From Eledone cirrhosa (lineage: Eukaryota): a DNA stretch of 43,989 nucleotides. Positions 3,133 through 43,989 of the stretch are shown piece after piece. The position numbers and the translations under genes are program-made. A model generated the notes under the pieces. The model had not been told where the DNA came from. It searched no databases and worked only from the letters and a program-made list of their open reading frames with translations. The DNA lies in the NCBI GenBank assembly GCA_964016885.1, contig CAXHJY010001336.1, forward strand, positions 1-43,989, in the 5' to 3' direction. The first letter of the stretch is position 1, and every line of letters begins with the position of its first letter.

Positions 3133-3570
3133 TAGCAATAATATATTTGTCTATAATATTTATAAGGTTCCTAGCAATAATATATTTGTCTATAATATTT
3201 ATAAGGTTCCTAGCAATAATATGTTTGTCTATAATATTTATAAGGTTCCTAGCAATAATATATTTGTCTATAATATTTATAAGGTTCCTAGCAATAATAT
3301 GTTTGTCTATAATATTTATAAGGTTCCTAGCAATAATATATTTGTCTATAATATTTATAAGGTTCCTAGCAATAATATGTTTGTCTATAATATTTATAAG
3401 GTTCCTAGCAATAATATATTTGTCTATAATATTTATAAGGTTCCTAGCAATAATATATTTGTCTATAATATTTATAAGGTTTCTAGCAATAATATGTTTG
3501 TCTATAATATTTATAAGGTTCCTAGCAATAATATATTTGTCTATAATATTTATAAGGTTCCTAGCAATAA
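3133..3570. repeat. 39-bp minisatellite, ~11 copies
   Basis: Unit TAGCAATAATAT(A/G)TTTGTCTATAATATTTATAAGGTTCC. Confidence 0.97.
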
Positions 3571-7739: not shown

Positions 7740-9683
7740 TGTGCTAGCAAAGAGGTTGGCGCTTGTTGTCGGTGGTCTGCAATACATTATGGAGAGGGTA
7801 GCTAATGAACCTAGCACGGGAGGGGCCTTGATCAATTTAGATCAGTCGAAAGCTTTCGATAGGGTCGACCATCGTTATCTGGCGGCAGTCCTGAGGTCAG
7901 CTGGCTTTGGGCTTGTCGTCAGAGGCTGGATCGCTGCCATGCACAGCGACATCTGCTCTGTAGTGAGAGTGAACAGTCACCTTTCGTAATTGTTCAATAT
8001 CATGTACTTGGCCCGCCAAGAATGTCTCCTCTCATTCCTGTTGTATGTATTGACTCTCGAGCCATTACTGCACAAACTGGAGACGTAGAGGGGCGTCCCG
8101 CATGAATTGGAATGTGGGAAAACTGTGTCAGCATATCCTGATGACGTCACTAGTGGTGTCAAGCGCAATGATTAACCAGGAAAAGTCAGTGGGCCTGTGG
8201 CTCGGCACCTGGAGAGGCAGGTCCATGCCATACAACAGCGTCATTGGGCGCTCGACGGATGGACTGGTTAAATTGCTAGGGGTCTGGTTTGATACGGACC
8301 TCCATACGGACAAAAACTGGAGTGAGGTGATGAACAGGGTGGCCTCTCTCACCCAGAAATGGGCTGAGAGGAAGCTATCCCTGAAAGGTTGAGCGGAGGT
8401 GGCGAACGCGTACATCCCGTCCATCTACAACCACCTCACTGTCGTGCCTTGTCTTAAGCCTTGCCTGACTGCATTGAAGCATTTGCTCTTTCGCTTTTTG
8501 TGGAAGGGATGCGCTCTGATGGTCAGGCGGTCCATTTGCTGTCAACACCCGCTACGTGGAGGGCTGGGCATACCATCGCTGATAATGCACAGACATGCGC
8601 TCAGGCTACGGTATCTCCACCTCTTCCTCGACGGTGATTGGGTGTGGTCGCTGTTTGCTAGATGCATTTTTCCTCAGTTCGTTTAATTAATGGAGCTGCA
8701 GTCCTGGATCAAGCGAAGACTGAGAGGGAACGCTTGGAGATTGGAATGTCTTCAGGTGCTCATAGCCCTCGACCAATCGGGTGATGCGATCGGTGAAACT
8801 CCGCCTTGGTGTTCTATAGAGGGTTAGTGGAGGGGAAGAGCGACGACGTCCTTGGGGAGACCCTGGGTGTCGATGAAAATCAACTAGCCAATCTCTTTGG
8901 GAGAACTTTCGGGCGTGGCCCATGGACAACTTCCAGAAATCCCTGGCCTGGCAGTGTTACTGGGGAACTTTGCCAGTTCGGGATAAACTCTACAGGCATG
9001 GAAGTGCCGTCAGCTGGGCCTGTCTGAGAGGCACACAGGGCAACAAAACCATCCTGCATACACTTGTCCAGTGTCCAAGCATTGCTGACTTGTGGGTTTA
9101 TGTCGAACACCTGCTGTTGCGTGTAGGACAGATCCGGCTATCAGCTGAGTCCATCGTGAGGATTGCCCCGCCCTCTTCCTTTAGCCGGAAAGAGCAGGCA
9201 GTTTTTATCTGTCTGGTGGCCATGGCGAAAGAGATAGTGTGGTGGACACGTTTGAAAGGGCTGAAGACGAGCACTTACCTCTTCGGTGATGCCCTGATTA
9301 ACTTTTTCAAATTTTATTTGAAAAGGAAAATCAGGGTAGAGAGGGAAGTGCTCTCTTCCCAGCTTTTTGTTGAAAGATGGGTGAGAGAGGCAAGAATGGC
9401 CCGAGTGAGTGGACCTCCTCTGAGTATGTGTCTGTAAATTAAAGGTGGAAAACTGGGAGAGGGCACTTGCCCTGGTGGTCAGGGTCACTGTGGCTTTTTT
9501 TAATGGGCTTTCTCCACAAGTGTCCCTCGGAGGTCTCCCCCTATTAGGAAATTTTCCTTTGTTTCTTCTTTTGTTATTTCCTTTGTTATTGTTTTTTCTT
9601 TACATGCAGAAATGCCCATTTGTACTGTCCTGTACTGTCCTTAATGTTATACTTTATGTCAACCCTTGTGGTTAATAAATAAA
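7740..9683 (+). mobile_element. 5'-truncated, decayed L1/Tx1-clade LINE (RT and zf-RVT remnant)
   Basis: LINLDQSKAFDRVDHRYL; AYPDDV (YADD-derived); VKLLGVWF; RGGLGIP; AWQCYWGTLPVRDKL..C..H..C; T-rich 3' UTR and AATAAATAAA end; many stops and frameshifts. Confidence 0.85.
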
Positions 9684-12246: not shown

Positions 12247-12440
12247 TCCTTTGTCAGTGTTGAACAAACGAGCAACGATGGTTGCTGGACACTATGGCTT
12301 AATACGGGATGTTTGTTTACAAACACACCGAGCATTATAATAAATGTTCGGTGAATCCATACGTACATATATATATATGTGTGCATGTATGTATATATAC
12401 ATACTACTGTACGTCTGTATACATATATGTATGTACGTGT

Positions 12441-13716
12441 TTACATCCGATATCGAACCTCAGGCAGCATATTTAACATCAGGCGCTTTGCTGCGAAGAC
12501 AAAAGTATTTACATCAGTCATAAGAGACCTCTTGTATGCAGATGATTGCGATCTTGTAGCGCACACAGAGAGTGATATGCAGCACATTTTGAATGCATTT
12601 TCTGACGCTTGCACTGCCCTGGGTTTGACTGTCAGTCTCAAGAAAACCGTCATCATGTACCAACCTGCCCCTAGTAAGCAGTACACTGAACCAAACATCT
12701 ATGTGTATGGCAAACGACTTGGAGTGGTTGATCAGTTTGTCTACCTGGGAAGCACTGTCAATCGATACAGCAACCTTGACAGTGAAATCTCACTTAGGAT
12801 TAGGAAAGCAAGTGATGCTTTCGGAAAGCTAGAAAGGCGACTCTGGGGTCGGCGAGACATATGCAGGAGGACAAAGGTAAAGGTGTACAGGGCATGTGTG
12901 CTCTCTTGTCTTCTTTATGCCTGCGAGACCTGGGTCACATATCGACACCACCTTAAGCAATTGGAGCGTTTCCATCAGATGTGTCTCAGACGGATCCATG
13001 GCGTTCACTGGAGGGACCACATCAGTGATGTCGAGATTTTGGAAAGCTCTATGTGTGACAGTATAGAAGCTCTTGTGCTTAAGCAACGACTCCGTTGGAG
13101 TGGTCACCTTACCAGGATGAAGGATTCTAGAATACCAAAACAACTCTTTTATGGAGAGTTGGTTAAAGGAAAACGACCGCCACATAAACCAAAAAGGAGG
13201 TATACGGATTCCTTGAAAGCCTCTCTGAAAGACGCTAACATCTCTGTTGATACATGGGAAAATATTGCTGCTGATCGTAATAAATGGAGAAAGACTGTAT
13301 ATGAGGGAAAAGTTGCCTTTGAGGCATCTCGAATCGCACACGAGAAAGTAAAGCGGGACGTGAGGAAGGGCATTGCTGTTGCACTTCCACATGGCGAGGG
13401 TCCTCCTATGGTGCTGACATGCAGCGTCTGTGCGAGACTCTGCCTAAGTAAAGCTGGACTCGAAAGTCATCTTCGCAGTCATAAAGTAAGACCAGTGGTT
13501 GACTACCAGGCTGCTGTTGGAGATGCTACTCATCATGCTTGCCAAACATGTGGTAGAGAATGTAAATCAGCAGGAGGCCTCAAGCGACATACAAAAGTAC
13601 ACAAACTCCAACCACAGCCGACTATTCCCAGTGAATGTTTTGGTTGCCGACTCTGTGCAAGACATTTTAGATCATTGGCTGGGCTAAAAAGCCACATTCG
13701 ATCGCAGCACTGTTAG
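12441..13716 (+). mobile_element. 5'-truncated RTE-clade LINE ORF: RT C-half plus three C2H2 zinc fingers, frame intact
   Basis: LLYADDCDL, FVYLGS, LLYACETW, RLRWSGHLTRM, GKRPPHKPKRRY and three CxxC-x12-H-x3/4-H fingers; ends in (TG)n. The ATG at 12379 is microsatellite-derived. Confidence 0.9.
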
Positions 13717-18048: not shown

Positions 18049-21000
18049 GTGGTGTTAAACCAGGTAATGGACACTGCTAAAATCATCTTATAGTCAGGTG
18101 GTGGTGTTAAACCAGGTAATGGACACTGCTAAAATCATCTTATAGTCAGGTGGTGGTGTTAAACCAGGTAATGGACACTGCTAAAATCATCTTATAGTCA
18201 GGTGGTGGTGTTAAACCAGGTAATGGACACTGCTAAAATCATCTTATAGTCAGGTGGTGGTGTTAAACCAGGTAATGGACACTGCTAAAATCATCTTATA
18301 GTCAGGTGGTGGTGTTAAACCAGGTAATGGACACTGCTAAAATCATCTTATAGTCAGGTGGTGGTGTTAAACCAGGTAATGGACACTGCTAAAATCACCT
18401 TATAGTCAGGTGGTGGTGTTAAACCAGATAATGGACACTGCTAAAATCGGCCTATAGTCAGGTGGTGGTGTTAAACCAGATAACGGACACTGCTAAAATC
18501 GGCCTATAGTCAGGTGGTGGTGTTAAACCAGGTAATGGACACTGCTAAAATCATCTTATAGTCAGGTGGTGGTGTTAAACCAGGTAATGGACACTGCTAA
18601 AATCATCTTATAGTCAGGTGGTGGTGTTAAACCAGGTAATGGACACTGCTAAAATCACCTTATAGTCAGGTGGTGGTGTTAAACCAGATAATGGACACTG
18701 CTAAAATCGGCCTATAGTCAGGTGGTGGTGTTAAACCAGATAACGGACACTGCTAAAATCGGCCTATAGTCAGGTGGTGGTGTTAAACCAGGTAATGGAC
18801 ACTGCTAAAATCATCTTATAGTCAGGTGGTGGTGTTAAACCAGGTAATGGACACTGCTAAAATCATCTTATAGTCAGGTGGTGGTGTTAAACCAGGTAAT
18901 GGACACTGCTAAAATCACCTTATAGTCAGGTGGTGGTGTTAAACCAGATAATGGACACTGCTAAAATCGGCCTATAGTCAGGTGGTGGTGTTAAACCAGA
19001 TAACGGACACTGCTAAAATCGGCCTATAGTCAGGTGGTGGTGTTAAACCAGGTAATGGACACTGCTAAAATCACCTTATAGTCAGGTGGTGGTGTTAAAC
19101 CAGATAATGGACACTGCTAAAATCGGCCTATAGTCAGGTGGTGGTGTTAAACCAGGTAATGGACACTGCTAAAATCATCTTATAGTCAGGTGGTGGTGTT
19201 AAACCAGGTAATGGACACTGCTAAAATCATCTTATAGTCAGGTGGTGGTGTTAAACCAGGTAATGGACACTGCTAAAATCATCTTATAGTCAGGTGGTGG
19301 TGTTAAACCAGGTAATGGACACTGCTAAAATCATCTTATAGTCAGGTGGTGGTGTTAAACCAGGTAATGGACACTGCTAAAATCATCTTATAGTCAGGTG
19401 GTGGTGTTAAACCAGGTAATGGACACTGCTAAAATCATCTTATAGTCAGGTGGTGGTGTTAAACCAGGTAATGGACACTGCTAAAATCATCTTATAGTCA
19501 GGTGGTGGTGTTAAACCAGGTAATGGACACTGCTAAAATCATCTTATAGTCAGGTGGTGGTGTTAAACCAGGTAATGGACACTGCTAAAATCACCTTATA
19601 GTCAGGTGGTGGTGTTAAACCAGATAATGGACACTGCTAAAATCGGCCTATAGTCAGGTGGTGGTGTTAAACCAGATAACGGACACTGCTAAAATCGGCC
19701 TATAGTCAGGTGGTGGTGTTAAACCAGGTAATGGACACTGCTAAAATCATCTTATAGTCAGGTGGTGGTGTTAAACCAGGTAATGGACACTGCTAAAATC
19801 ATCTTATAGTCAGGTGGTGGTGTTAAACCAGGTAATGGACACTGCTAAAATCACCTTATAGTCAGGTGGTGGTGTTAAACCAGATAATGGACACTGCTAA
19901 AATCGGCCTATAGTCAGGTGGTGGTGTTAAACCAGATAACGGACACTGCTAAAATCGGCCTATAGTCAGGTGGTGGTGTTAAACCAGGTAATGGACACTG
20001 CTAAAATCATCTTATAGTCAGGTGGTGGTGTTAAACCAGGTAATGGACACTGCTAAAATCATCTTATAGTCAGGTGGTGGTGTTAAACCAGGTAATGGAC
20101 ACTGCTAAAATCACCTTATAGTCAGGTGGTGGTGTTAAACCAGATAATGGACACTGCTAAAATCGGCCTATAGTCAGGTGGTGGTGTTAAACCAGATAAC
20201 GGACACTGCTAAAATCGGCCTATAGTCAGGTGGTGGTGTTAAACCAGGTAATGGACACTGCTAAAATCACCTTATAGTCAGGTGGTGGTGTTAAACCAGA
20301 TAATGGACACTGCTAAAATCGGCCTATAGTCAGGTGGTGGTGTTAAACCAGATAACGGACACTGCTAAAATCGGCCTATAGTCAGGTGGTGGTGTTAAAC
20401 CAGGTAATGGACACTGCTAAAATCATCTTATAGTCAGGTGGTGGTGTTAAACCAGGTAATGGACACTGCTAAAATCATCTTATAGTCAGGTGGTGGTGTT
20501 AAACCAGGTAATGGACACTGCTAAAATCATCTTATAGTCAGGTGGTGGTGTTAAACCAGGTAATGGACACTGCTAAAATCATCTTATAGTCAGGTGGTGG
20601 TGTTAAACCAGGTAATGGACACTGCTAAAATCATCTTATAGTCAGGTGGTGGTGTTAAACCAGGTAATGGACACTGCTAAAATCACCTTATAGTCAGGTG
20701 GTGGTGTTAAACCAGATAATGGACACTGCTAAAATCGGCCTATAGTCAGGTGGTGGTGTTAAACCAGATAACGGACACTGCTAAAATCGGCCTATAGTCA
20801 GGTGGTGGTGTTAAACCAGGTAATGGACACTGCTAAAATCATCTTATAGTCAGGTGGTGGTGTTAAACCAGGTAATGGACACTGCTAAAATCATCTTATA
20901 GTCAGGTGGTGGTGTTAAACCAGGTAATGGACACTGCTAAAATCACCTTATAGTCAGGTGGTGGTGTTAAACCAGATAATGGACACTGCTAAAATCGGCC

Positions 21001-22171
21001 TATAGTCAGGTGGTGGTGTTAAACCAGATAACGGACACTGCTAAAATCGGCCTATAGTCAGGTGGTGGTGTTAAACCAGGTAATGGACACTGCTAAAATC
21101 ACCTTATAGTCAGGTGGTGGTGTTAAACCAGATAATGGACACTGCTAAAATCGGCCTATAGTCAGGTGGTGGTGTTAAACCAGGTAATGGACACTGCTAA
21201 AATCATCTTATAGTCAGGTGGTGGTGTTAAACCAGGTAATGGACACTGCTAAAATCATCTTATAGTCAGGTGGTGGTGTTAAACCAGGTAATGGACACTG
21301 CTAAAATCATCTTATAGTCAGGTGGTGGTGTTAAACCAGGTAATGGACACTGCTAAAATCATCTTATAGTCAGGTGGTGGTGTTAAACCAGGTAATGGAC
21401 ACTGCTAAAATCATCTTATAGTCAGGTGGTGGTGTTAAACCAGGTAATGGACACTGCTAAAATCATCTTATAGTCAGGTGGTGGTGTTAAACCAGGTAAT
21501 GGACACTGCTAAAATCATCTTATAGTCAGGTGGTGGTGTTAAACCAGGTAATGGACACTGCTAAAATCATCTTATAGTCAGGTGGTGGTGTTAAACCAGG
21601 TAATGGACACTGCTAAAATCATCTTATAGTCAGGTGGTGGTGTTAAACCAGGTAATGGACACTGCTAAAATCATCTTATAGTCAGGTGGTGGTGTTAAAC
21701 CAGGTAATGGACACTGCTAAAATCACCTTATAGTCAGGTGGTGGTGTTAAACCAGATAATGGACACTGCTAAAATCGGCCTATAGTCAGGTGGTGGTGTT
21801 AAACCAGATAACGGACACTGCTAAAATCGGCCTATAGTCAGGTGGTGGTGTTAAACCAGGTAATGGACACTGCTAAAATCATCTTATAGTCAGGTGGTGG
21901 TGTTAAACCAGGTAATGGACACTGCTAAAATCATCTTATAGTCAGGTGGTGGTGTTAAACCAGATAATGGACACTGCTAAAATCATCTTATAGTCAGGTG
22001 GTGGTGTTAAACCAGGTAATGGACACTGCTAAAATCATCTTATAGTCAGGTGGTGGTGTTAAACCAGGTAATGGACACTGCTAAAATCATCTTATAGTCA
22101 GGTGGTGGTGTTAAACCAGGTAATGGACACTGCTAAAATCATCTTATAGTCAGGTGGTGGTGTTAAACCAG
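18049..22171. repeat. 52-bp satellite array, 79 full units, with higher-order organisation
   Basis: Unit GTGGTGTTAAACCAGGTAATGGACACTGCTAAAATCATCTTATAGTCAGGTG with constant 52-bp phase. Confidence 0.98.
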
Positions 22172-22419
22172 ATGATGGATTAAGTTTATCACCCAAACAG
22201 GCAATACTTGGATTTGAACTCGACACAAACAACTTAAACAATTACTGCAATATATCACACCTAATGTTCTAACAATTTGGTTAATTCCTTACTTTGTATT
22301 GGGACTTTATCAATCTGAAAGAATGAAAGGTCATGTTGACATCAAAAGGATTTGAACACAGAGTGCAATAAATCGGAACAAATACTGCAAGCCATTTTAT
22401 CATACATTCTAATCATAAC

Positions 22420-28784: not shown

Positions 28785-28795
28785 TGGTGACCCCG
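28785..28795 (+). promoter_or_regulatory. Primer-binding site, tRNA-Trp type
   Basis: TGGTGACCCCG starts 2 nt after the LTR; complementary to the tRNA-Trp 3' end (..CGGGGTCACCA). Confidence 0.85.
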
Positions 28796-28835
28796 TAAAA
28801 CAGACACACAACCTTCTGATCAACCACAACAAACG

Positions 28836-29717
28836 ATGTCTCTAGCACACGACGATTCATCTACGGCAGAAATGGCAGTCAGGGCGGCATTTACATTAAG
28901 GATTCCACCATTCTGGGTGCACGATCCAACACTGTGGTTCGCGCACATCGAAGCGCAGTTCGCATCGAACCGGATCGTTAGCGAGGCATCCCGTCTCACA
29001 CATCTCATCGGTTCGATGTCTCCGGAGATTTTGAATGAGGTTCGAGACCTCATTTTAGCAGCACCCGGCTCTGTATCATATGACACATTTAAAAGAACAT
29101 TAGTTAAGCAGACATCGGAGTCGCAGCAGAAGTGTTTGCACGAGCTCCTCATATCGGAGGAATTAGGAGATAAAAAGCCGACGCAACTCCTACGGAGAAT
29201 GAAGCAGCTTCTGGGTGAACATAAACTCCCGGATTAAATTTTTAAGCAACTCTTCCTTCAGCGTTTACCTTCTGCCACACAAGTTGTACTAGCATCCACC
29301 AGAGAGTCCACCACCATAGAAGAACTTGCCGAGCTGGCAGATAAGATCATGGAGGTACCACATCCGCACTCAACTTTAGCAAATGTAACGCCAGCCGTGC
29401 CTCCCACCAATCCTTTTCTTCAGCCCTCCAGTGCCACAGAGACGCCCGATCTACACCAGTTACTGGCACAGCAAGCAACACAGATACAGGCCTTGACGCA
29501 ACAAATTCGGGCCTTGTCACTGGGCAACCCTGCCACGCGTCGGTCCAACAGCCGAACTCGCCGATTTGGTGGTCGCTCAAGAAGTCCCAGCGCATCTCGA
29601 GATTCACCAGAAATGTGTTGGTACCACCAAAGATTCGGGAGATGAGCGCAAAAGTGCAGCCATCCCTGTTCATTTGTTTCGAAATCGAATCAGGGAAACG
29701 ACACAGCCAGAAACTGA
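28836..29717 (+). pseudogene. gag: gag with in-frame stops at 29235 and 29643
   Basis: IPPFW..DP.LWFAHIEAQF, LGDKKPTQLLRRM, CWYHQRFG..AQKCSHPC. Confidence 0.88.
29693..29699 (+). promoter_or_regulatory. -1 ribosomal frameshift slippery site (gag-pol)
   Basis: G GGA AAC in the gag frame; the pol frame (GGG AAA CGA) is -1 and open into the protease. Confidence 0.75.
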
Positions 29718-32700
29718 ATGCGACAGACGTTTCTGGCCCTCATAACCAAAGTCGCCTATTTTTTATTCAGGATCGCGTCACAGGCACGCGTTTCCTGGTC
29801 GACACCGGTGCTGAAGTGAGCATCATCCCGGTTTCCTGCGTTCCTGGAAAAAGGAGAGAGACACCAGCCTGGCTCCAGGCAGTGAATCACTCACATATTC
29901 CGACCTACGGAGAACAGTCCCCGACACTAAATTTGGGACTACGCCGCACTTTCCAGTGGGTATTCGTTGTTGCTAAGCTGCCGACCCCTATTTTAGGAGC
30001 TGATTTTCTTCAGCACTTCTCGCTTCTAGTGGATCTGAAAAACTAACGTCTCGTCGACAACTCCACTGGACTCACTGTGCGCGGCATAGCTGCTAGGACA
30101 GCCACAGTCAGTCCAGTCATTTCAAGATCGACAACAACCCGGCACAACCACATCATCAACAAATACACATGTAGCTCGACCACTATTCAACGCTTGCCCT
30201 GTAAAACATGATGTCACACACCACATAAAAACTCACGGCCCACCTGTCGCTGCACGACCTAGAAGGCTACCACCAGACCGGCTGAAGTCCGTCAAACAAG
30301 AATTTCAGCACATGCTGGATGTCGGCATCATACGTCCGTCCAGCAGCAACTGGTCCTCACCCATACACTGTGTACCCAAGAAGTCGTCGAACGACTGGCG
30401 AATCTGTGGCGACTACCGTGCACTAAACAACTGCACCGTTCCTGACTCTTATCCAGTGCCTCATCTACAGGACTTCTCTAGCTCGCTGCACGGGGCTCGC
30501 ATATTTTCGAAGATCGATCTTGTGCGAGCTTACAATCAGATACCCGTTGAGCCCGCAGATATTCCAAAGACCGCAGTCACAACACCCTTTGGAATGTTCG
30601 AATTTCTGCGTATGCCTTTCGGTTTGCGAAATGCAGTGCAGACATTCCAGCGATTCATCGATAGTCACCAGGGGTCTACCTTTTGTATACGCATACATTG
30701 ACGACTTACTGGTGGCCAGCAGCTCCGATGAGGAACATGAGAAACACCTGGATCTCCTATTCACACGTTTGCGTGAATATGGAATTGTTATCAACCCCAG
30801 CAAATGTGAGTTCGGAGTTGCGTCCCTTCATTTTCTGGGACACATCATTGACAAAGATGGTATTCGCCCACTTAAGGAGAAAGTCAAATCCATCATTGAT
30901 TTTCCACAACCTACATCTCTCCGCAAACTGCGAGAATTTCTTGGCCTGGTAAACTTCTACAGAAGATGTATACCCCACTGTGCAGAGACAGCCCAACTAC
31001 TCACAGATTTGCTGCGGCAGCGTACAACCCAAAACGCAAACATCAAGCTCAGCGAAAAAGAATGTACCGCTTTCGCTGAGTTGAAGAAAATGTTGTCCGA
31101 GGCTACAATGCTGAGTTACCCCAAACCTGATGCCCCAATGTGTTTATTGACTGATGCATCCGACTTCGGAGTTGGAGGTGTGCTTCAACAACTCTCTGGC
31201 GATATTTGGCGACCTGTATCTTTTTTCTATAAGTGATTAAAACCCACCGAAACTAAGTACAGCACATTCAGTCATGAATTATTGGCAGCATACCTTGCTG
31301 TCAAGCATTTTCGACACATGCTAGATGGTCGTGTGTTCTCTATATACACCGACCACAAACCACTAGTGTACGCGTTCAATGCCAAGCCTGACCGACACTC
31401 ACCCAGGGAGGTCCGACATCTGGACTTCATTTCCCAGTACACTACTGATATTCGGTACATTAAGGGTGCCACCAACTCAACAGCTGATGCCCTATCGCGC
31501 ATGGAGCTTAACATAATCCACACCACTGCCACTATCGACCTCCAGAGGATTGCAGTGGATCAACAGAATGACGAGGAACTGCTGCAACTCCGGAAATCAT
31601 CCTTGAAATTGAAGGAATGCCCGCTGCCCTCTTCTTCGGGTTATATTTGGTGCGACATCTCCACAGGCCACGAGCGCCCATACATGCCCCGGAAACATCG
31701 ACGCGACGTTTTCTCGGCAATTCATTCTCTGGCACATCCTGGCGTCCGCGCCACGCAGAAACTAATGTTTGCCCGCTTTGTGTGGCCCAACATCAACAAG
31801 GACACCGGCACATCAAAGCCCCGATTGGCTCTTTCGCAACACCTGATGCACGGTTCCAACATGTGCATATAGACATTGTTGGACCTTTGCCTCCTTCTCA
31901 CAACTACACTCATCTTCTCACCTGTGTCGACCGATTTTCTCGCTGGCCAGAAGCTTTTCCTCTGACGGATATTACTGCGGAAACTGTCGCCAAAACGCTA
32001 GTGTTTCACTGGGTTTCGCGTTTCGGCACACCAGCGACCATCACTACGGATAGAGGACGTCAGTTCGATTCGCACTTATTTACCGAGCTAACTCGTCTCC
32101 TCGGGTGCAAACACATCCGTACAACAGCGTATCACCCTGCGGCTAACGGCATGGTAGAACGCTTACACCGCCAGCTAAAATCATCTATCAAGGCTTACGA
32201 AGACTCCACTAACTGGTTCGAACACCTCCCACTCATTCTTCTTGGTATTCGTTCCACTGTTAAGGAGGGAGTCGGACATTCTCCGGCTGAAATGGTGTAT
32301 GGCACCGTACTCACTCTACCCGGACAAATGATTGCTCCTGTTTCGCCACAAGAACTTCCAAACCCTACAAAATTTGTGCACCGTTTACGGTCATCGATGT
32401 CGCATCTGTCTCCTTCAGCCCCTAAACAACAGCACGTTACTTCACACATACCAAAAGACATCGATACATGGACGCATGTTTTCGTTAGAAATGACGGTAT
32501 TCCATCGCAACTTCGTCCGCCGTATTCCGGGCCCTATAAGGTGATACAGAAATGCCCTAAGTATTTCGTCCTCGACTTGAACGGGAAACGAAATATCATC
32601 TCCATTGATCGTTTAAAAAAAGCGTTCATAGAACAGGAATTGCCACCAGTACCCACCGTTTCTCCAGCAGACTCACCAACAACTTTGTCCGACACAAACA

Positions 32701-32750
32701 CGACAAATTCTGCACAACCCCGACACACCAAATCCGGAAGAACAGTCTGA
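29693..32750 (+). pseudogene. pol: pol (protease, RT, RNase H, integrase), disrupted
   Basis: FLVDTGAEVS; [11 protein letters not shown]; [12 protein letters not shown]; YIDDLLV; TDASDFGVG; YTDHKPL; [26 protein letters not shown]; PYSGPY. Stops at 30044 and 31234; several frameshifts. Confidence 0.93.
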
Positions 32751-34255: not shown

Positions 34256-34497
34256 ACCGGTTGCCACATATATATCTATGACTTTATGTATATGTAAATC
34301 TTTATATTTAATAATCTCCCGTTGGGTTGAGATGCAATTGGGCGATATTGGGCTGCGCTTTCTAGCAACCAGCCTACCCGCCGTAAGCAACTAATCACAT
34401 TCTTTCTAACTTGACCACTGCCACATCACGATTCTTAACCATTTTTGAATCTATTTTTGGCGCGATCGCTTTGGAAAATTAACTGTCCAACTGAGTC

Positions 34498-34579
34498 TGT
34501 CTCCTGAAGAGTCTGTTACTCTAGGTTCATCCTTAGCAGTAGGATATCTAAAAGTACGGACGAAACCATGGTAGAGATG
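34498..34579 (+). ncRNA. Type I hammerhead ribozyme with extended stem II
   Basis: TGTCTC-CTGAAGA-GTCTGT..ATCCT-TAGCAGT-AGGAT..ACGGAC-GAAA-CCATGG-TA^GAGATG; canonical core; palindromic stem III; cleavage after 34573. Confidence 0.85.
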
Positions 34580-34920
34580 TAATTACGGTATGTACACGTT
34601 TCTTCTAAGTTTAAATTTACACCTAATTGTGTATGGTTGACGGTATATTTAGTCAGTTTCTACATGCTGTTGAAATGTTGGGTAAATACTCTATTGGGGT
34701 CACCGGGAAGAGGCCATTTTCGGTTATTTATCAAATATTTCTTCATAGAAGCCTTTATTCTTATAGCCTGGTCTAATTGATTTTTTTATATGGTTAATTA
34801 TGCTAATTGGTAGAGGAAATGGTATATATTTTATCTAATAATTCTAAGGACATGATTTATGATATATATATATATATATAACAGATAAACACTTGAAATG
34901 TGAGATATATATATATATAC

Positions 34921-36385
34921 TTTGTTGACTTGGAGAAAGCCTTTGACAGAGTCCCCCGCTCCATTATCTGGTGGGCTCTCAGAAAAACTAGGTGTTGATG
35001 AATGGCTTGTGAGAGCTATACAAGCCATGTATAAAGAAACAGTCAGCAAGGTTAGAATTAACAACGAATATAGTGAAGAGTTTAGCGTAAAAGTTGGTGT
35101 TCATCAGGGCTCTGTTCTTAGCCCCCTACTATTTATTATTGCCCTTCAGGCTATAACAGAGGAGTTCAAGACTGGCTGCCCATGGGAACTTCTATACGCA
35201 GATGATCTAACGCTCATAGCTGAACTAGAGAAGAAATTCCAAACATGGAAGCATGGCCTAGAATCAAAAGGCCTTAAAGTTAACTTGTCTAAGACTAAAG
35301 TTCTAGTTTGTAGGAAGGAAAATAGGGCACCGGTCCCATCTGGGAAATGGCCATGCTCAGTGTGTAGGAAAGGAGTAGGCAGAAACTCCATTTTATGTCC
35401 CAAATGCAAAGTATGGGTGCATAAAAGATGTAGTGGGATGACAGGTAAGCTAACTAAGAATATAGATTTTGTATGTGGCCGGTGCTCTTGTGCAATAAGT
35501 AGCAGCAAGTGCCCACAGAATACTAACTCATTCCATTGCACAGATGGTTCTATAGAAATAGTGGACACCTTCCGTTACCTGGGTGACAAAATCAGTAGTG
35601 GGGGAGGGTGCTCTGAAAGTACAGTAGCTAGAGTCAGAACGGGATGGAACAAGTTCAGAGAGCTTATACCACTATTGGCCGCTAAAGGGTTCTCTCTAAA
35701 AATGAAAGGCAAGCTGTATGATGCCTGCATAAGAAAAGCATAAACGAACTAAGGGAGAAATTAGGAATAAGATGGATCAGATGTTGTTTACTCGAGAGAA
35801 GACTATGTTGGTATGGTCACGTGATGCGCATGAAAGACGACAGCTGTATAAAAAAGTGCAGAGCGATAAAAATAGACGGTAGCCACGGAGTAGGCAGACC
35901 TAGAAAAACCTGGGACGACTTGATAATATTCCGACCTCACACACTTACACCTCTCCAAGACAATGTCACTGGACCGAGATCTTTGGCGCTACACAGTTAT
36001 ACAGAAGACCCGCCTTGCCTAAGTACAAAGCGAAACCTACAGTCAATAGGCACCTCTAACAAAATACACCCCCGTTTTACTACCCCGACTCCATCCACAC
36101 CACCCCCTTAAATGTGAAGTTATGTTGGTACCAGAACATCCAGTCCGAAACAAATGAGGTCGTGTAGGTGTCATGACAAAAAAAACACACAGTCCACGCT
36201 GTAATGTGGCCGTGTAGGTAACACGGTAAAAATCTCCCAGTCCACAATGTAAACGTGGTTAGTGTTAGGAAAACCCGCCAGACAGTCCTATACGAGCAGG
36301 ACAACCAATCTTGCCTCAAGTGGGAAAACTCCTGTCCAAACCCATGCAAGCATGGAAGATGGACGTTACAGGATGATGATGATGA
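34921..36385 (+). mobile_element. 5'-truncated RTE LINE (RT with PHD-like insertion, internal deletion, 3' UTR)
   Basis: FVDLEKAFDRVP, GVHQGSVLSPLLF, LLYADDL, FRYLGD, GRPRKTW, (GAT)n tail. Confidence 0.9.
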
Positions 36386-36400
36386 TATACATATATATAA

Positions 36401-37228
36401 TTGCATGCTCCGCTGGATGTGAAATAGTAATATACGTGAACGGCAAAGCATAAACGAACTAAGGAAAAAATTAGAAACAAGAGGGATCAGATGTTGTTTA
36501 CTCGAGAGAAGACTACTTTGGTACGGTCACGTGATGCGCATGAAAGATGATAGCTGTATAACAAAGTGCAGGGCAATAAAGATAGACGGTAGCCACAGAG
36601 TAGGCAAACCCAGAAAAACCTGGGACGAGCTGATAAATTCCCACCTGACACACTTACACCTCTCCAAGACAATGTCACTGGACCGAGACCTTTGGCGGTA
36701 CTCAGTAATAGAGAAGACCCGCCTTACCTAAATACAAAGGAAAACCTACTACAGTCAGTAGGCAGCTCTAACAAAATACACCCCCGTCCCACCACCCACA
36801 CCCCATCCACACCGCCCCCTTCTATGTAAAGTTATGTTGGTGCCACACCATCCAGGCCGAAACAAATGAGATCGTGTAGGTGTCACGACAAAAAAACACA
36901 CAGTCCACACTGTAATGTGGCCGTGTAGGTAACACGGTAAAAACATCCCAGACCCACATTGTAAATGTGGTTGGTGTTAGGAAGGGCATCCAGCTGTAGA
37001 AAACCTGCCAGACAGTCCACGCTGTAATGTGGCCGTGTAGGCAACACGGTAAAAACCTCCCAGCTCCACACTGTAAATGTGGTTGGTGTTAGGAAGGGCA
37101 TCCAGCTGTAGAAAACCCGCCAGACAGTCCTATGCGAGCAAGACAATCACTCTTGCCTCAAGTGGGAAAACCCCCGTCCAAACCCATGCAAGCGTGGAAC
37201 ACGGACGTTAAACGATGATGATGATGAT
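36401..37228 (+). mobile_element. Second RTE LINE 3' end in tandem, with an internal UTR duplication
   Basis: [20 protein letters not shown]; the segment CAGTCCAC..GTAGAAAACC occurs twice (~36900-37125). Confidence 0.88.
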
Positions 37229-42230
<5,002 letters not shown>

Positions 42231-42538
42231 GTATATATGTGTGCGTCCGCATGTATCTGTGTGTTTCTAAATATATTAATAACTCCCTCTGGTCGAGCAA
42301 TCTTCGAGGTGTGGGGACAACTGGAAAGCTTCCATTACTCATACTTCTCGCCTTCTTCACTACCTCTTCTACGGCCTCGATATGAATACCCCTCCGCCTC
42401 CGTGGTATTTTCTTCGTGGTTATAGGAGGCTTAGCTCTGTTTCTCGACAGTTATATCGCGTGACTATCTCCCCCTCCGCCTTTTGGGATTCTTTCTCACG
42501 TCGTGTAGACGCGTTCTTGAGACTAGTAAAATGAGGTA

Positions 42539-42626
42539 TCCTCTTGATAAGTCGGCAGACCTCGCAAGGACTCTATATCTTTGATATATTGTTTTTGTTT
42601 ATGCCACGAAACTACGTAGTCGAGGA
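42539..42626 (+). ncRNA. Type I hammerhead ribozyme, U3-A8 core variant (unit 1)
   Basis: TCCTC-TTGATAA-GTCGGCA...TGCCAC-GAAA-CTACGTAG-TC^GAGGA; cleavage after 42621. Confidence 0.82.
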
Positions 42627-43129
42627 ATTTAGGAACAGTTTAGGTATGATACATTTTATTACTAATTATATCTAAATGTTTCTTCTCTCTTCATAATGTA
42701 TTTTTAACTCTGATACTGGTTCAGTCTAGTTCAAACTGAATTGGTCTGTCCTGGTCATTCATTGAGCAACATCGGTGAAGTTGGCACCCTTAACTCACAG
42801 TTGGGTGCGGATGCGTTCATGTATATATGTGTGCGTCCGCATGTATCTGTGTGTTTCTAAATATATTAATAACTCCCTCTGGTCGAGCAATCTTCGAGGT
42901 GTGGGGACAACTGGAAAGCTTCCATTACTCATACTTCTCGCCTTCTTCACTACCTCTTCTACGGCCTCGATATGAATACCCCCTCCGCCTCCGTGGTATT
43001 TTCTTCATGGTTATAGGAGGCTTAGCTCTGTTTCTCGACAGTTATATCGCGTGACTATCTCCCCCTCCGCCTTTTGGGATTCTTTCTCACGTCGTGTAGA
43101 CGCGTTCTTGAGACTAGTAAAATGAGGTA

Positions 43130-43217
43130 TCCTCTTGATAAGTCGGCAGACCTCGCAAGGACTCTATATCTTTGATATATTGTTTTTGTTTATGCCACGA
43201 AACTACGTAGTCGAGGA
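43130..43217 (+). ncRNA. Type I hammerhead ribozyme, U3-A8 core variant (unit 2)
   Basis: Identical motif; cleavage after 43212. Confidence 0.82.
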
Positions 43218-43720
43218 ATTTAGGAACAGTTTAGGTATGATACATTTTATTACTAATTATATCTAAATGTTTCTTCTCTCTTCATAATGTATTTTTAACT
43301 CTGATACTGGTTCAGTCTAGTTCAAACTGAATTGGTCTGTCCCGGTCATTCATTGAGCAACATCGGTGAAGTTGGCACCCTTAACTCACAGTTGGGTGCG
43401 GATGCGTTCATGTATATATGTGTGCGTCCGCATGTATCTGTGTGTTTCTAAATATATTAATAACTCCCTCTGGTCGAGCAATCTTCGAGGTGTGGGGACA
43501 ACTGGAAAGCTTCCATTACTCATACTTCTCGCCTTCTTCACTACCTCTTCTACGGCCTCGATATGAATACCCCCTCCGCCTCCGTGGTATTTTCTTCGTG
43601 GTTATAGGAGGCTTAGCTCTGTTTCTCGACAGTTATATCGCGTGACTATCTCCCCCTCCGCCTTTTGGGATTCTTTCTCACGTCGTGTAGACGCGTTCTT
43701 GAGACTAGTAAAATGAGGTA

Positions 43721-43808
43721 TCCTCTTGATAAGTCGGCAGACCTCGCAAGGACTCTATATCTTTGATATATTGTTTTTGTTTATGCCACGAAACTACGTA
43801 GTCGAGGA
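43721..43808 (+). ncRNA. Type I hammerhead ribozyme, U3-A8 core variant (unit 3)
   Basis: Identical motif; cleavage after 43803. Confidence 0.82.
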
Positions 43809-43989
43809 TTTAGGAACAGTTTAGGTATGATACATTTTATTACTAATTATATCTAAATGTTTCTTCTCTCTTCATAATGTATTTTTAACTCTGATACTGG
43901 TTCAGTCTAGTTCAAACTGAATTGGTCTGTCCCGGTCATTCATTGAGCAACATCGGTGAAGTTGGCACCCTTAACTCACAGTTGGGTGC

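Follow-up and report, generated by a model that had tools for sequence, protein, structure and literature searches.

The tandem repeat of 591 nt at the end of the Eledone cirrhosa window (the whole stretch of DNA analysed, 43,989 nucleotides, contig CAXHJY010001336.1) is best explained as a non-LTR retrozyme with a Penelope-like footprint, each array of which probably arose when a Penelope-type enzyme went repeatedly round a single monomeric RNA template, itself probably a circle. We assign this reading a probability of about 0.68. The repeat is dispersed and multi-copy, without LTR structure, and its identity as a metazoan non-LTR retrozyme, put forward in the preliminary description, is supported by its tandem non-coding units, each with a type I hammerhead, and by thousands of dispersed copies. 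The element itself is of a known kind and of ordinary size; what is of value is the genomic evidence that it offers on mechanism.

The hammerhead array in the window

As the window is an entire contig, the array, which is interrupted by the contig end, is incomplete at its 3' side (Table 1). Three head-to-tail units had been described; they are in tandem and near-identical, with 1 to 3 positions different over their shared length, but the third is only partial. The edge of the (TA)n tract, previously taken for the start of the units, is a variable 5' truncation point rather than a defined start. A complete type I hammerhead was recognised by our own descriptor in each of the three units, and the GUC cut sites (C17 of each hammerhead) are, as first noted, 591 nt apart in both intervals. 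In the third hammerhead one A is missing immediately downstream of the cut, and the helix I pairing is retained. The repeat is non-coding, the longest Met-started ORF on the looped monomer having 75 aa, which agrees with the earlier statement that no credible ORF is present.

Table 1. Features of the window (positions in the 43,989-nucleotide stretch)
Feature	Position	Strand	Remarks
LINE-type fragment	8877..9437	+	zf-RVT
LINE-type fragment	12355..13716	+	RT with C2H2 fingers
52-nt minisatellite	18049..22179		79 copies, 96% matches
LTR-retrotransposon-type element	28791..32750	+	broken frames: DUF7041, aspartyl protease, RT, RNase H, integrase
Second hammerhead repeat, unrelated, between TA tracts	34257..34860	+	hammerhead ~34498-34579, CUGAAGA core, palindromic helix III ACCAUGGU, predicted cut after 34573
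LINE-type fragment	34904..36100	+	RT with PHD finger
(TA)n/(TACA) microsatellite tract, insertion target, ~5 kb	37227..42229		adjoins the array's truncated 5' end
Tandem array, 2.98 units of the 591-nt repeat	42230..43989	+	5' truncation at monomer +199; 3' end lost
Type I hammerhead 1	42539..42626	+	U3-A8 core at 42544, GAAA at 42608, predicted cut after C42621
Predicted excised monomer 1, 591 nt, candidate circle	42622..43212	+	cut-to-cut interval, folding
Proximal fixed 3' end site, +80 from the cut	42690..42701, also 43292	+	family insertion ends; putative reverse-transcription start
Distal fixed 3' end site, +245/246, behind a long hairpin	42855..42867, also 43457	+	putative reverse-transcription start
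Type I hammerhead 2	43130..43217	+	predicted cut after C43212
Predicted excised monomer 2, 591 nt	43213..43803	+	cut-to-cut interval
Type I hammerhead 3	43720..43809	+	predicted cut after C43803

The second hammerhead repeat of the window has no alignable similarity to the 591-nt unit; it matched at 72-82% in eight fetched loci, some of them inverted pairs. Further unrelated type I hammerhead motifs were seen in loci L106, L108, L111, L115, L119, L214, L223 and L228. These extra motifs lie near Penelope-like ORFs or TA tracts and show that the genome has many such families.

Structure and conservation of the ribozyme

Helix I of the hammerhead is formed by UCCUC/GAGGA, and the core reads UUGAUAA, i.e. 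with U3-A8 in place of C3-G8, a feature that the preliminary description did not mention and a covariant reported for Schistosoma Penelope-like elements (PMC4209133). Helix II, GU(C)GGCA/UGCCAC, closes a 44-nt extension and is followed by GAAA. Helix III is the palindrome ACUACGUAGU, with a computed self-duplex energy of -14.3 kcal/mol, and a palindromic form of this helix has been linked to dimeric activity (PMC4209133).

No Rfam model matched the window at the gathering score; the ribozyme was therefore called by means of our own descriptor, backed by its conservation, and without help from a library model. This descriptor of type I hammerheads, although loose, fitted none of 1000 dinucleotide-shuffled monomers. 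The monomer has a folding z-score of -3.97, and its circular fold reaches -166 kcal/mol for the + strand versus -130 kcal/mol for the - strand. Two results of the folding count against our preferred reading: the hammerhead fold of the isolated motif lies 1.1 kcal/mol above the minimum-energy fold, and the hammerhead is incompletely formed in the minimum-energy structure of the monomer. The same holds for two published observations, namely that 1 of 9 frog retrozyme dimers was cleaved in vitro (10.64898/2026.07.22.740005) and that the Penelope protein carries out insertion without need of cleavage, with uncut RNA as its main substrate (PMC11167929).

Core and helices were identical in 110 of the 118 parsed motifs. 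In 15 representative monomers (down to 79% identity), they differed by 0.8% from those of the window and the remainder of the unit by 9.8%, and in young copies the difference was 0.64% for the ribozyme and 1.8% for the remainder. The low divergence of the ribozyme relative to the remainder points to selection acting on it. Much of the variation in the predicted helices is of the A-U/G-U or G-C/G-U type, with few double changes, a pattern that has no phylogenetic control and is supportive only. Both self-cleavage of the family transcript and a 591-nt RNA circle are predicted from these features.

Family size and anatomy of the insertions

Dispersed copies, for which a genome-wide search had been suggested, proved abundant: the exact ribozyme 23-mer occurs 7,488 times in 3.0 Gb (reversed control, 0). 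The loci diverge from the majority sequence by a median of 1.1% (maximum 15%). The recent amplification supposed earlier is supported.

Insertions were parsed in 120 fetched loci, of which 42 came from the ribozyme list (40 of them consecutive, plus two more) and 78 from the +80 list. On the 3' side the insertions stop at one of two fixed sites, +80 or ~+245 from the cut, and pass into (TA)n, and their 5' ends are scattered across the unit. Variable start points had been named as something to look for; the 3' ends, the putative starts of copying, lie at these two internal sites and never at the cut, and only the 5' ends vary. Exact junctions of +80 with (TA)n were found 1,965 times genome-wide and junctions of +246 at least 626 times, the latter being a lower bound because the search pattern covers one phase and misses the pure (TA)n phase, and genome-wide no copy was found that ends at the ribozyme cut followed by six A/T. 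Loose (AT)n ends occur at the same two places, +80 and ~+245, in the DNA-like run X1. The insertions lie in microsatellite or AT-rich DNA such as (TA)n tracts, and the flanks, inspected by eye for target-site duplications, consist of microsatellite.

Two inverted arms with both 3' ends outward make up 66 of the 127 parsed insertions, and the two outer ends both adjoin (TA)n. An arm ending at +80 is paired with one ending at +245 in 59 of these 66 insertions (including two duplicates of a neighbour), like is never paired with like (0/66), and the remaining seven, which are nested, older or rearranged, show an end of a non-canonical kind. For the 40 loci chosen regardless of their ends, the +80/+245 pairing was found in 19 of 19 cases (18 independent), which has a chance of ~4 in a million if ends are chosen independently and at equal rates. 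The arms overlap at their joint in 45 of the 66 insertions, by 1-60 nt as aligned, a count that has no null model.

The 165-nt segment between +80 and +245 is the footprint of a Penelope 'tail'. The tail of Penelope is the stretch between two internal RNA start sites of a protein that cleaves the two strands of its target and extends each of them (PMC11167929); tandem and inverted structures with a one-sided tail have been described for Penelope-like elements (PMC8557442).

A sister retrozyme family of ~595 nt and ~80% identity (L212-L241; 1,738 first-look candidates) has kept the ribozyme core and both end sites, and no autonomous relative of it was found in 30 loci. Some single loci have peculiar structures. 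In L016 the sequence of the left flank recurs on the right as its reverse complement, and whole two-armed insertions are tandemly duplicated in L004-L010 (G000:C1:351.52 Mb), L073 and L176. In L127, an 11-nt segment of the element, repeated ~7 times, fills the joint of the arms (3200-3290), and one unit carries a 16-nt internal duplication; both look like polymerase slippage. Candidate L181 was set aside as an insertion whose TA tract was lost.

Clonality of the arrays and nature of the template

Units differ by 0.43% within an arm, by 0.70% between arms and by 2.9% between loci (0.34%, 0.48% and 2.6%, respectively, in the first 56 loci). When variants were compared between arms, six nested, mixed or duplicate loci having been dropped, the common variants agreed at 199 of 210 sites, and among sites covered at least three times 122 variants were present in all units and 10 in some only; the 11 disagreeing sites and these 10 variants count against our preferred reading. 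In L127, the one locus for which the privacy of variants was examined genome-wide, all six full units depart from the majority in the same 10 places, eight of these changes being A>G, and five of the 10 are absent from the 82 other loci compared. Its A113G+A114G variant is present at seven places in 3.0 Gb, all of them in L127, four in one arm and three in the other. The source locus of this haplotype could be absent from the assembly. Finally, the cut site is crossed without indel in 321 of 321 cases in the fetched loci, some of which overlap.

These observations favour rolling synthesis on one monomer as the origin of the arrays. A monomer copied repeatedly, a seamless junction and a ribozyme under selection are together most simply explained by a cut and re-ligated circle. 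Of the rolling reverse transcription of a circle proposed in the preliminary description, the rolling on one monomer is directly supported in the genome by the clonality, the L127 haplotype and the seamless crossings, and the circle is predicted.

Seamless read-through of the cut site would be equally expected if the same retrozyme and enzyme had used an uncut linear multimer as template, the clonality then being derived from homogeneous or DNA-homogenised source arrays. Uncut RNA is the main in vitro substrate (PMC11167929), local DNA amplification has been proposed (10.64898/2026.07.22.740005), whole insertions are known to be tandemly duplicated at the loci listed above, and a few variants are only partly shared among units. 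We nevertheless consider such a template unlikely, as the L127 variant is found at no other locus of the assembly yet fills both arms, the single-unit differences in this array stay unconverted, and fixed 3' starts combined with 5' truncation would only shorten arrays, whose arms reach ~5.4 units.

Slightly less probable still is a template in the form of a single linear monomer, released by cleavage, with the reverse transcriptase returning time and again from its 5' end to its 3' end, although the clonality would be explained equally well. End-to-end jumps of R2-type reverse transcriptases usually add or lose bases, so that the lack of any indel at the 321 crossings argues against jumping, as do 5' ends distributed over the entire unit. 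Occasional use of cleaved linear RNA is weakly suggested by the 5' ends joined to A/T flank exactly at the cut, which number 11 versus 4 and 3 at two control positions. However, 2 of the 11 are inversion joints and 1 resembles a mutated intact unit; at the second control position, 30 of 33 matches resembled point mutants. Runs X4 and X5, of unspecified kind, contain contigs of 621 and 620 nt, corresponding to one unit plus ~30 nt; they were not used, since either a circle or a tandem repeat would yield them.

The derived alleles include 17 A>G versus 8 T>C (p = 0.003), and A>G accounts for 8 of 27 private array-wide variants versus 9 of 134 single-unit variants (p = 0.002); within the private array-wide variants, the difference between 8 A>G and 5 T>C is not significant (p = 0.15). 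In view of this last comparison, and because selection for G-U pairs would give the same A>G bias, A-to-I editing of the 591-nt RNA is a lead only.

A probable Penelope-type partner

The genome contains 10,597 candidate GIY-YIG loci, of which 150 were scored and 20 long-frame and 30 other loci were examined. L101 (G000:C1:145870000-145878000) has a 938-aa frame with RVT_1 and, at its C terminus, a GIY-YIG domain and is an autonomous Penelope-like element, whose nearest named relatives are bivalve proteins with 45-47% identity, which would fit a molluscan genome. A young autonomous Penelope-like family is formed by L101, L102, L106, L108, L110 and L112. This family has a minimal hammerhead with the U3-A8 core and fixed ends at +82 and ~+146, one of each being paired in L106, L110 and L112, and its distal end finishes with TTTCTAA, like that of the retrozyme. 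L101 and the 591-nt repeat have no alignable homology (best E 0.35). Mobilisation by a Penelope-type enzyme, as assumed earlier, is supported by the tail-type end pairing in 59 of 66 insertions and by the presence of an autonomous element with the same end pattern. We infer that the partner is a resident Penelope-like element, whichever its family.

Searching with tblastn in 56 loci, the window and 13 selected further loci detected no RT/GIY-YIG ORF between units, and no pseudo-LTR homologous to the unit was present in the 50 GIY-YIG loci examined of the 10,597 candidates. In L149 (1409-3537), the retrozyme continues at its 5' end into 2.1 kb of a Penelope-like RT ORF of the L111 family with the same orientation; the joint lies in mid-ORF, at monomer +172 and without TA between, and may be due to a template switch or a deletion. 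L077, at first regarded as a possible retrozyme/Penelope chimera, was rejected as evidence of a partner because it proved to be a nested structure in which the repeat abuts a small L101-family insertion with two arms at the latter's +82 end, and weak matches of monomer positions 181-245 to L120, L103 and others were rejected as TG/TA low-complexity sequence.

That the units merely represent pseudo-LTRs whose Penelope ORF lies outside the window, or that they are a satellite or were duplicated at a single locus, is very improbable and for the family as a whole largely refuted: the far side of the window locus is unreadable, the contig ending inside the array, and L149 does show the repeat fused to a Penelope-like ORF, but the copies are dispersed in thousands, the units adjoin directly, two-armed insertions are bounded by (TA)n on both sides, and the L149 joint is located inside the ORF and not at a pLTR-ORF boundary.

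Proposed mechanism and significance

According to our preferred reading, copying round one monomeric RNA, the array would be transcribed on the + strand, as suggested by the strand-biased folding and the G-U-tolerant variation. The hammerheads, likely paired via the palindromic helix III, are predicted to release 591-nt monomers, and these would probably be ligated into circles, consistent with the conservation of the ribozyme. The RT/GIY-YIG protein of an autonomous Penelope-like element would then cut the (TA)n tract, and cDNA would be primed at the internal positions +80 and +245, where the fixed ends are observed. Synthesis would pass the ribozyme junction for up to several rounds, in line with the observed read-through and clonality. 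The observed structures suggest that either a single cDNA would be joined to the opposite flank, or both target ends would be extended, one per start site, with the tails of the resulting two cDNAs then linked to each other, in many cases through a few nucleotides of microhomology.

A more far-reaching version, which we hold tentatively and at somewhat less than even odds, is that the template is a covalently closed, sometimes A-to-I-edited 591-nt ribozyme circle and that one Penelope-type protein dimer binds it, primes both (TA)n ends at different fixed sites and rolls in both arms. If this is true, RNA edits would become heritable DNA, the rolling-circle model of retrozymes would be proved at the genomic level by these insertions, and Penelope integration would obey an obligatory one-site-per-strand rule.

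The strict end pairing and the clonal arrays bear on the origin of both retrozyme arrays and Penelope inversions. As a young and abundant family, the 591-nt repeat provides countable footprints in the form of fixed starts, end pairing and private variants in both arms, and it supplies a defined RNA, a target and a candidate enzyme for an in vitro test.

Comparison with known systems

A search of the literature on octopus or cephalopod hammerheads, circular RNA and retrozyme rolling reverse transcription gave no matching paper by title or start of abstract, and the supplements of PMC7229834 may list cephalopods. For tandem retrozymes, reverse transcription of circles has been proposed (PMC7229834), as has local DNA amplification, with the mechanism still to be elucidated (10.64898/2026.07.22.740005), and the tandem and inverted structures of Penelope elements have been termed unexplained (PMC8557442).

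Like the metazoan non-LTR retrozymes (PMC7229834; 10.64898/2026.07.22.740005), the family consists of tandem units that have no coding capacity, contain a single type I hammerhead apiece and have a GC content below 50%, and it is present in thousands of dispersed copies beside autonomous Penelope-like elements. The preliminary description considered described monomers to be mostly shorter; 591 nt is not unusually large, as it falls within the reported range of 51-972 bp (10.64898/2026.07.22.740005), although it exceeds the invertebrate retrozyme examples of 170-400 nt. Unlike these retrozymes, the 591-nt family, known here from genomic sequence alone, has a U3-A8 core and a 44-nt helix II extension, and its fixed internal ends, inverted arms and clonality are undescribed for metazoan non-LTR retrozymes in the parts of the sources cited.

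The U3-A8 minimal hammerheads of Schistosoma mansoni Penelope-like elements share the core covariation, the palindromic helix III and a predicted function as dimer; they are mostly single motifs tied to pLTRs (PMC4209133), whereas here the motif is part of a self-standing tandem unit and is highly conserved. With endonuclease-containing Penelope-like elements such as the anole Poseidon PAc, the family has in common 5' truncation, partial tandems and an inverted 5' copy (PMC11167929; PMC8557442), two alternative 3' ends downstream of the hammerhead with a one-sided 'tail', and AT-rich or (TA)n targets. It differs from the PAc type in having no ORF and a tail of ~165 nt instead of 30-40 nt; the starts of PAc are spaced by 7 nt, at positions 111-118 (PMC11167929). 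The strict one-of-each pairing of the two ends, in contrast to the available descriptions of PAc-type elements, has been counted for the 591-nt family.
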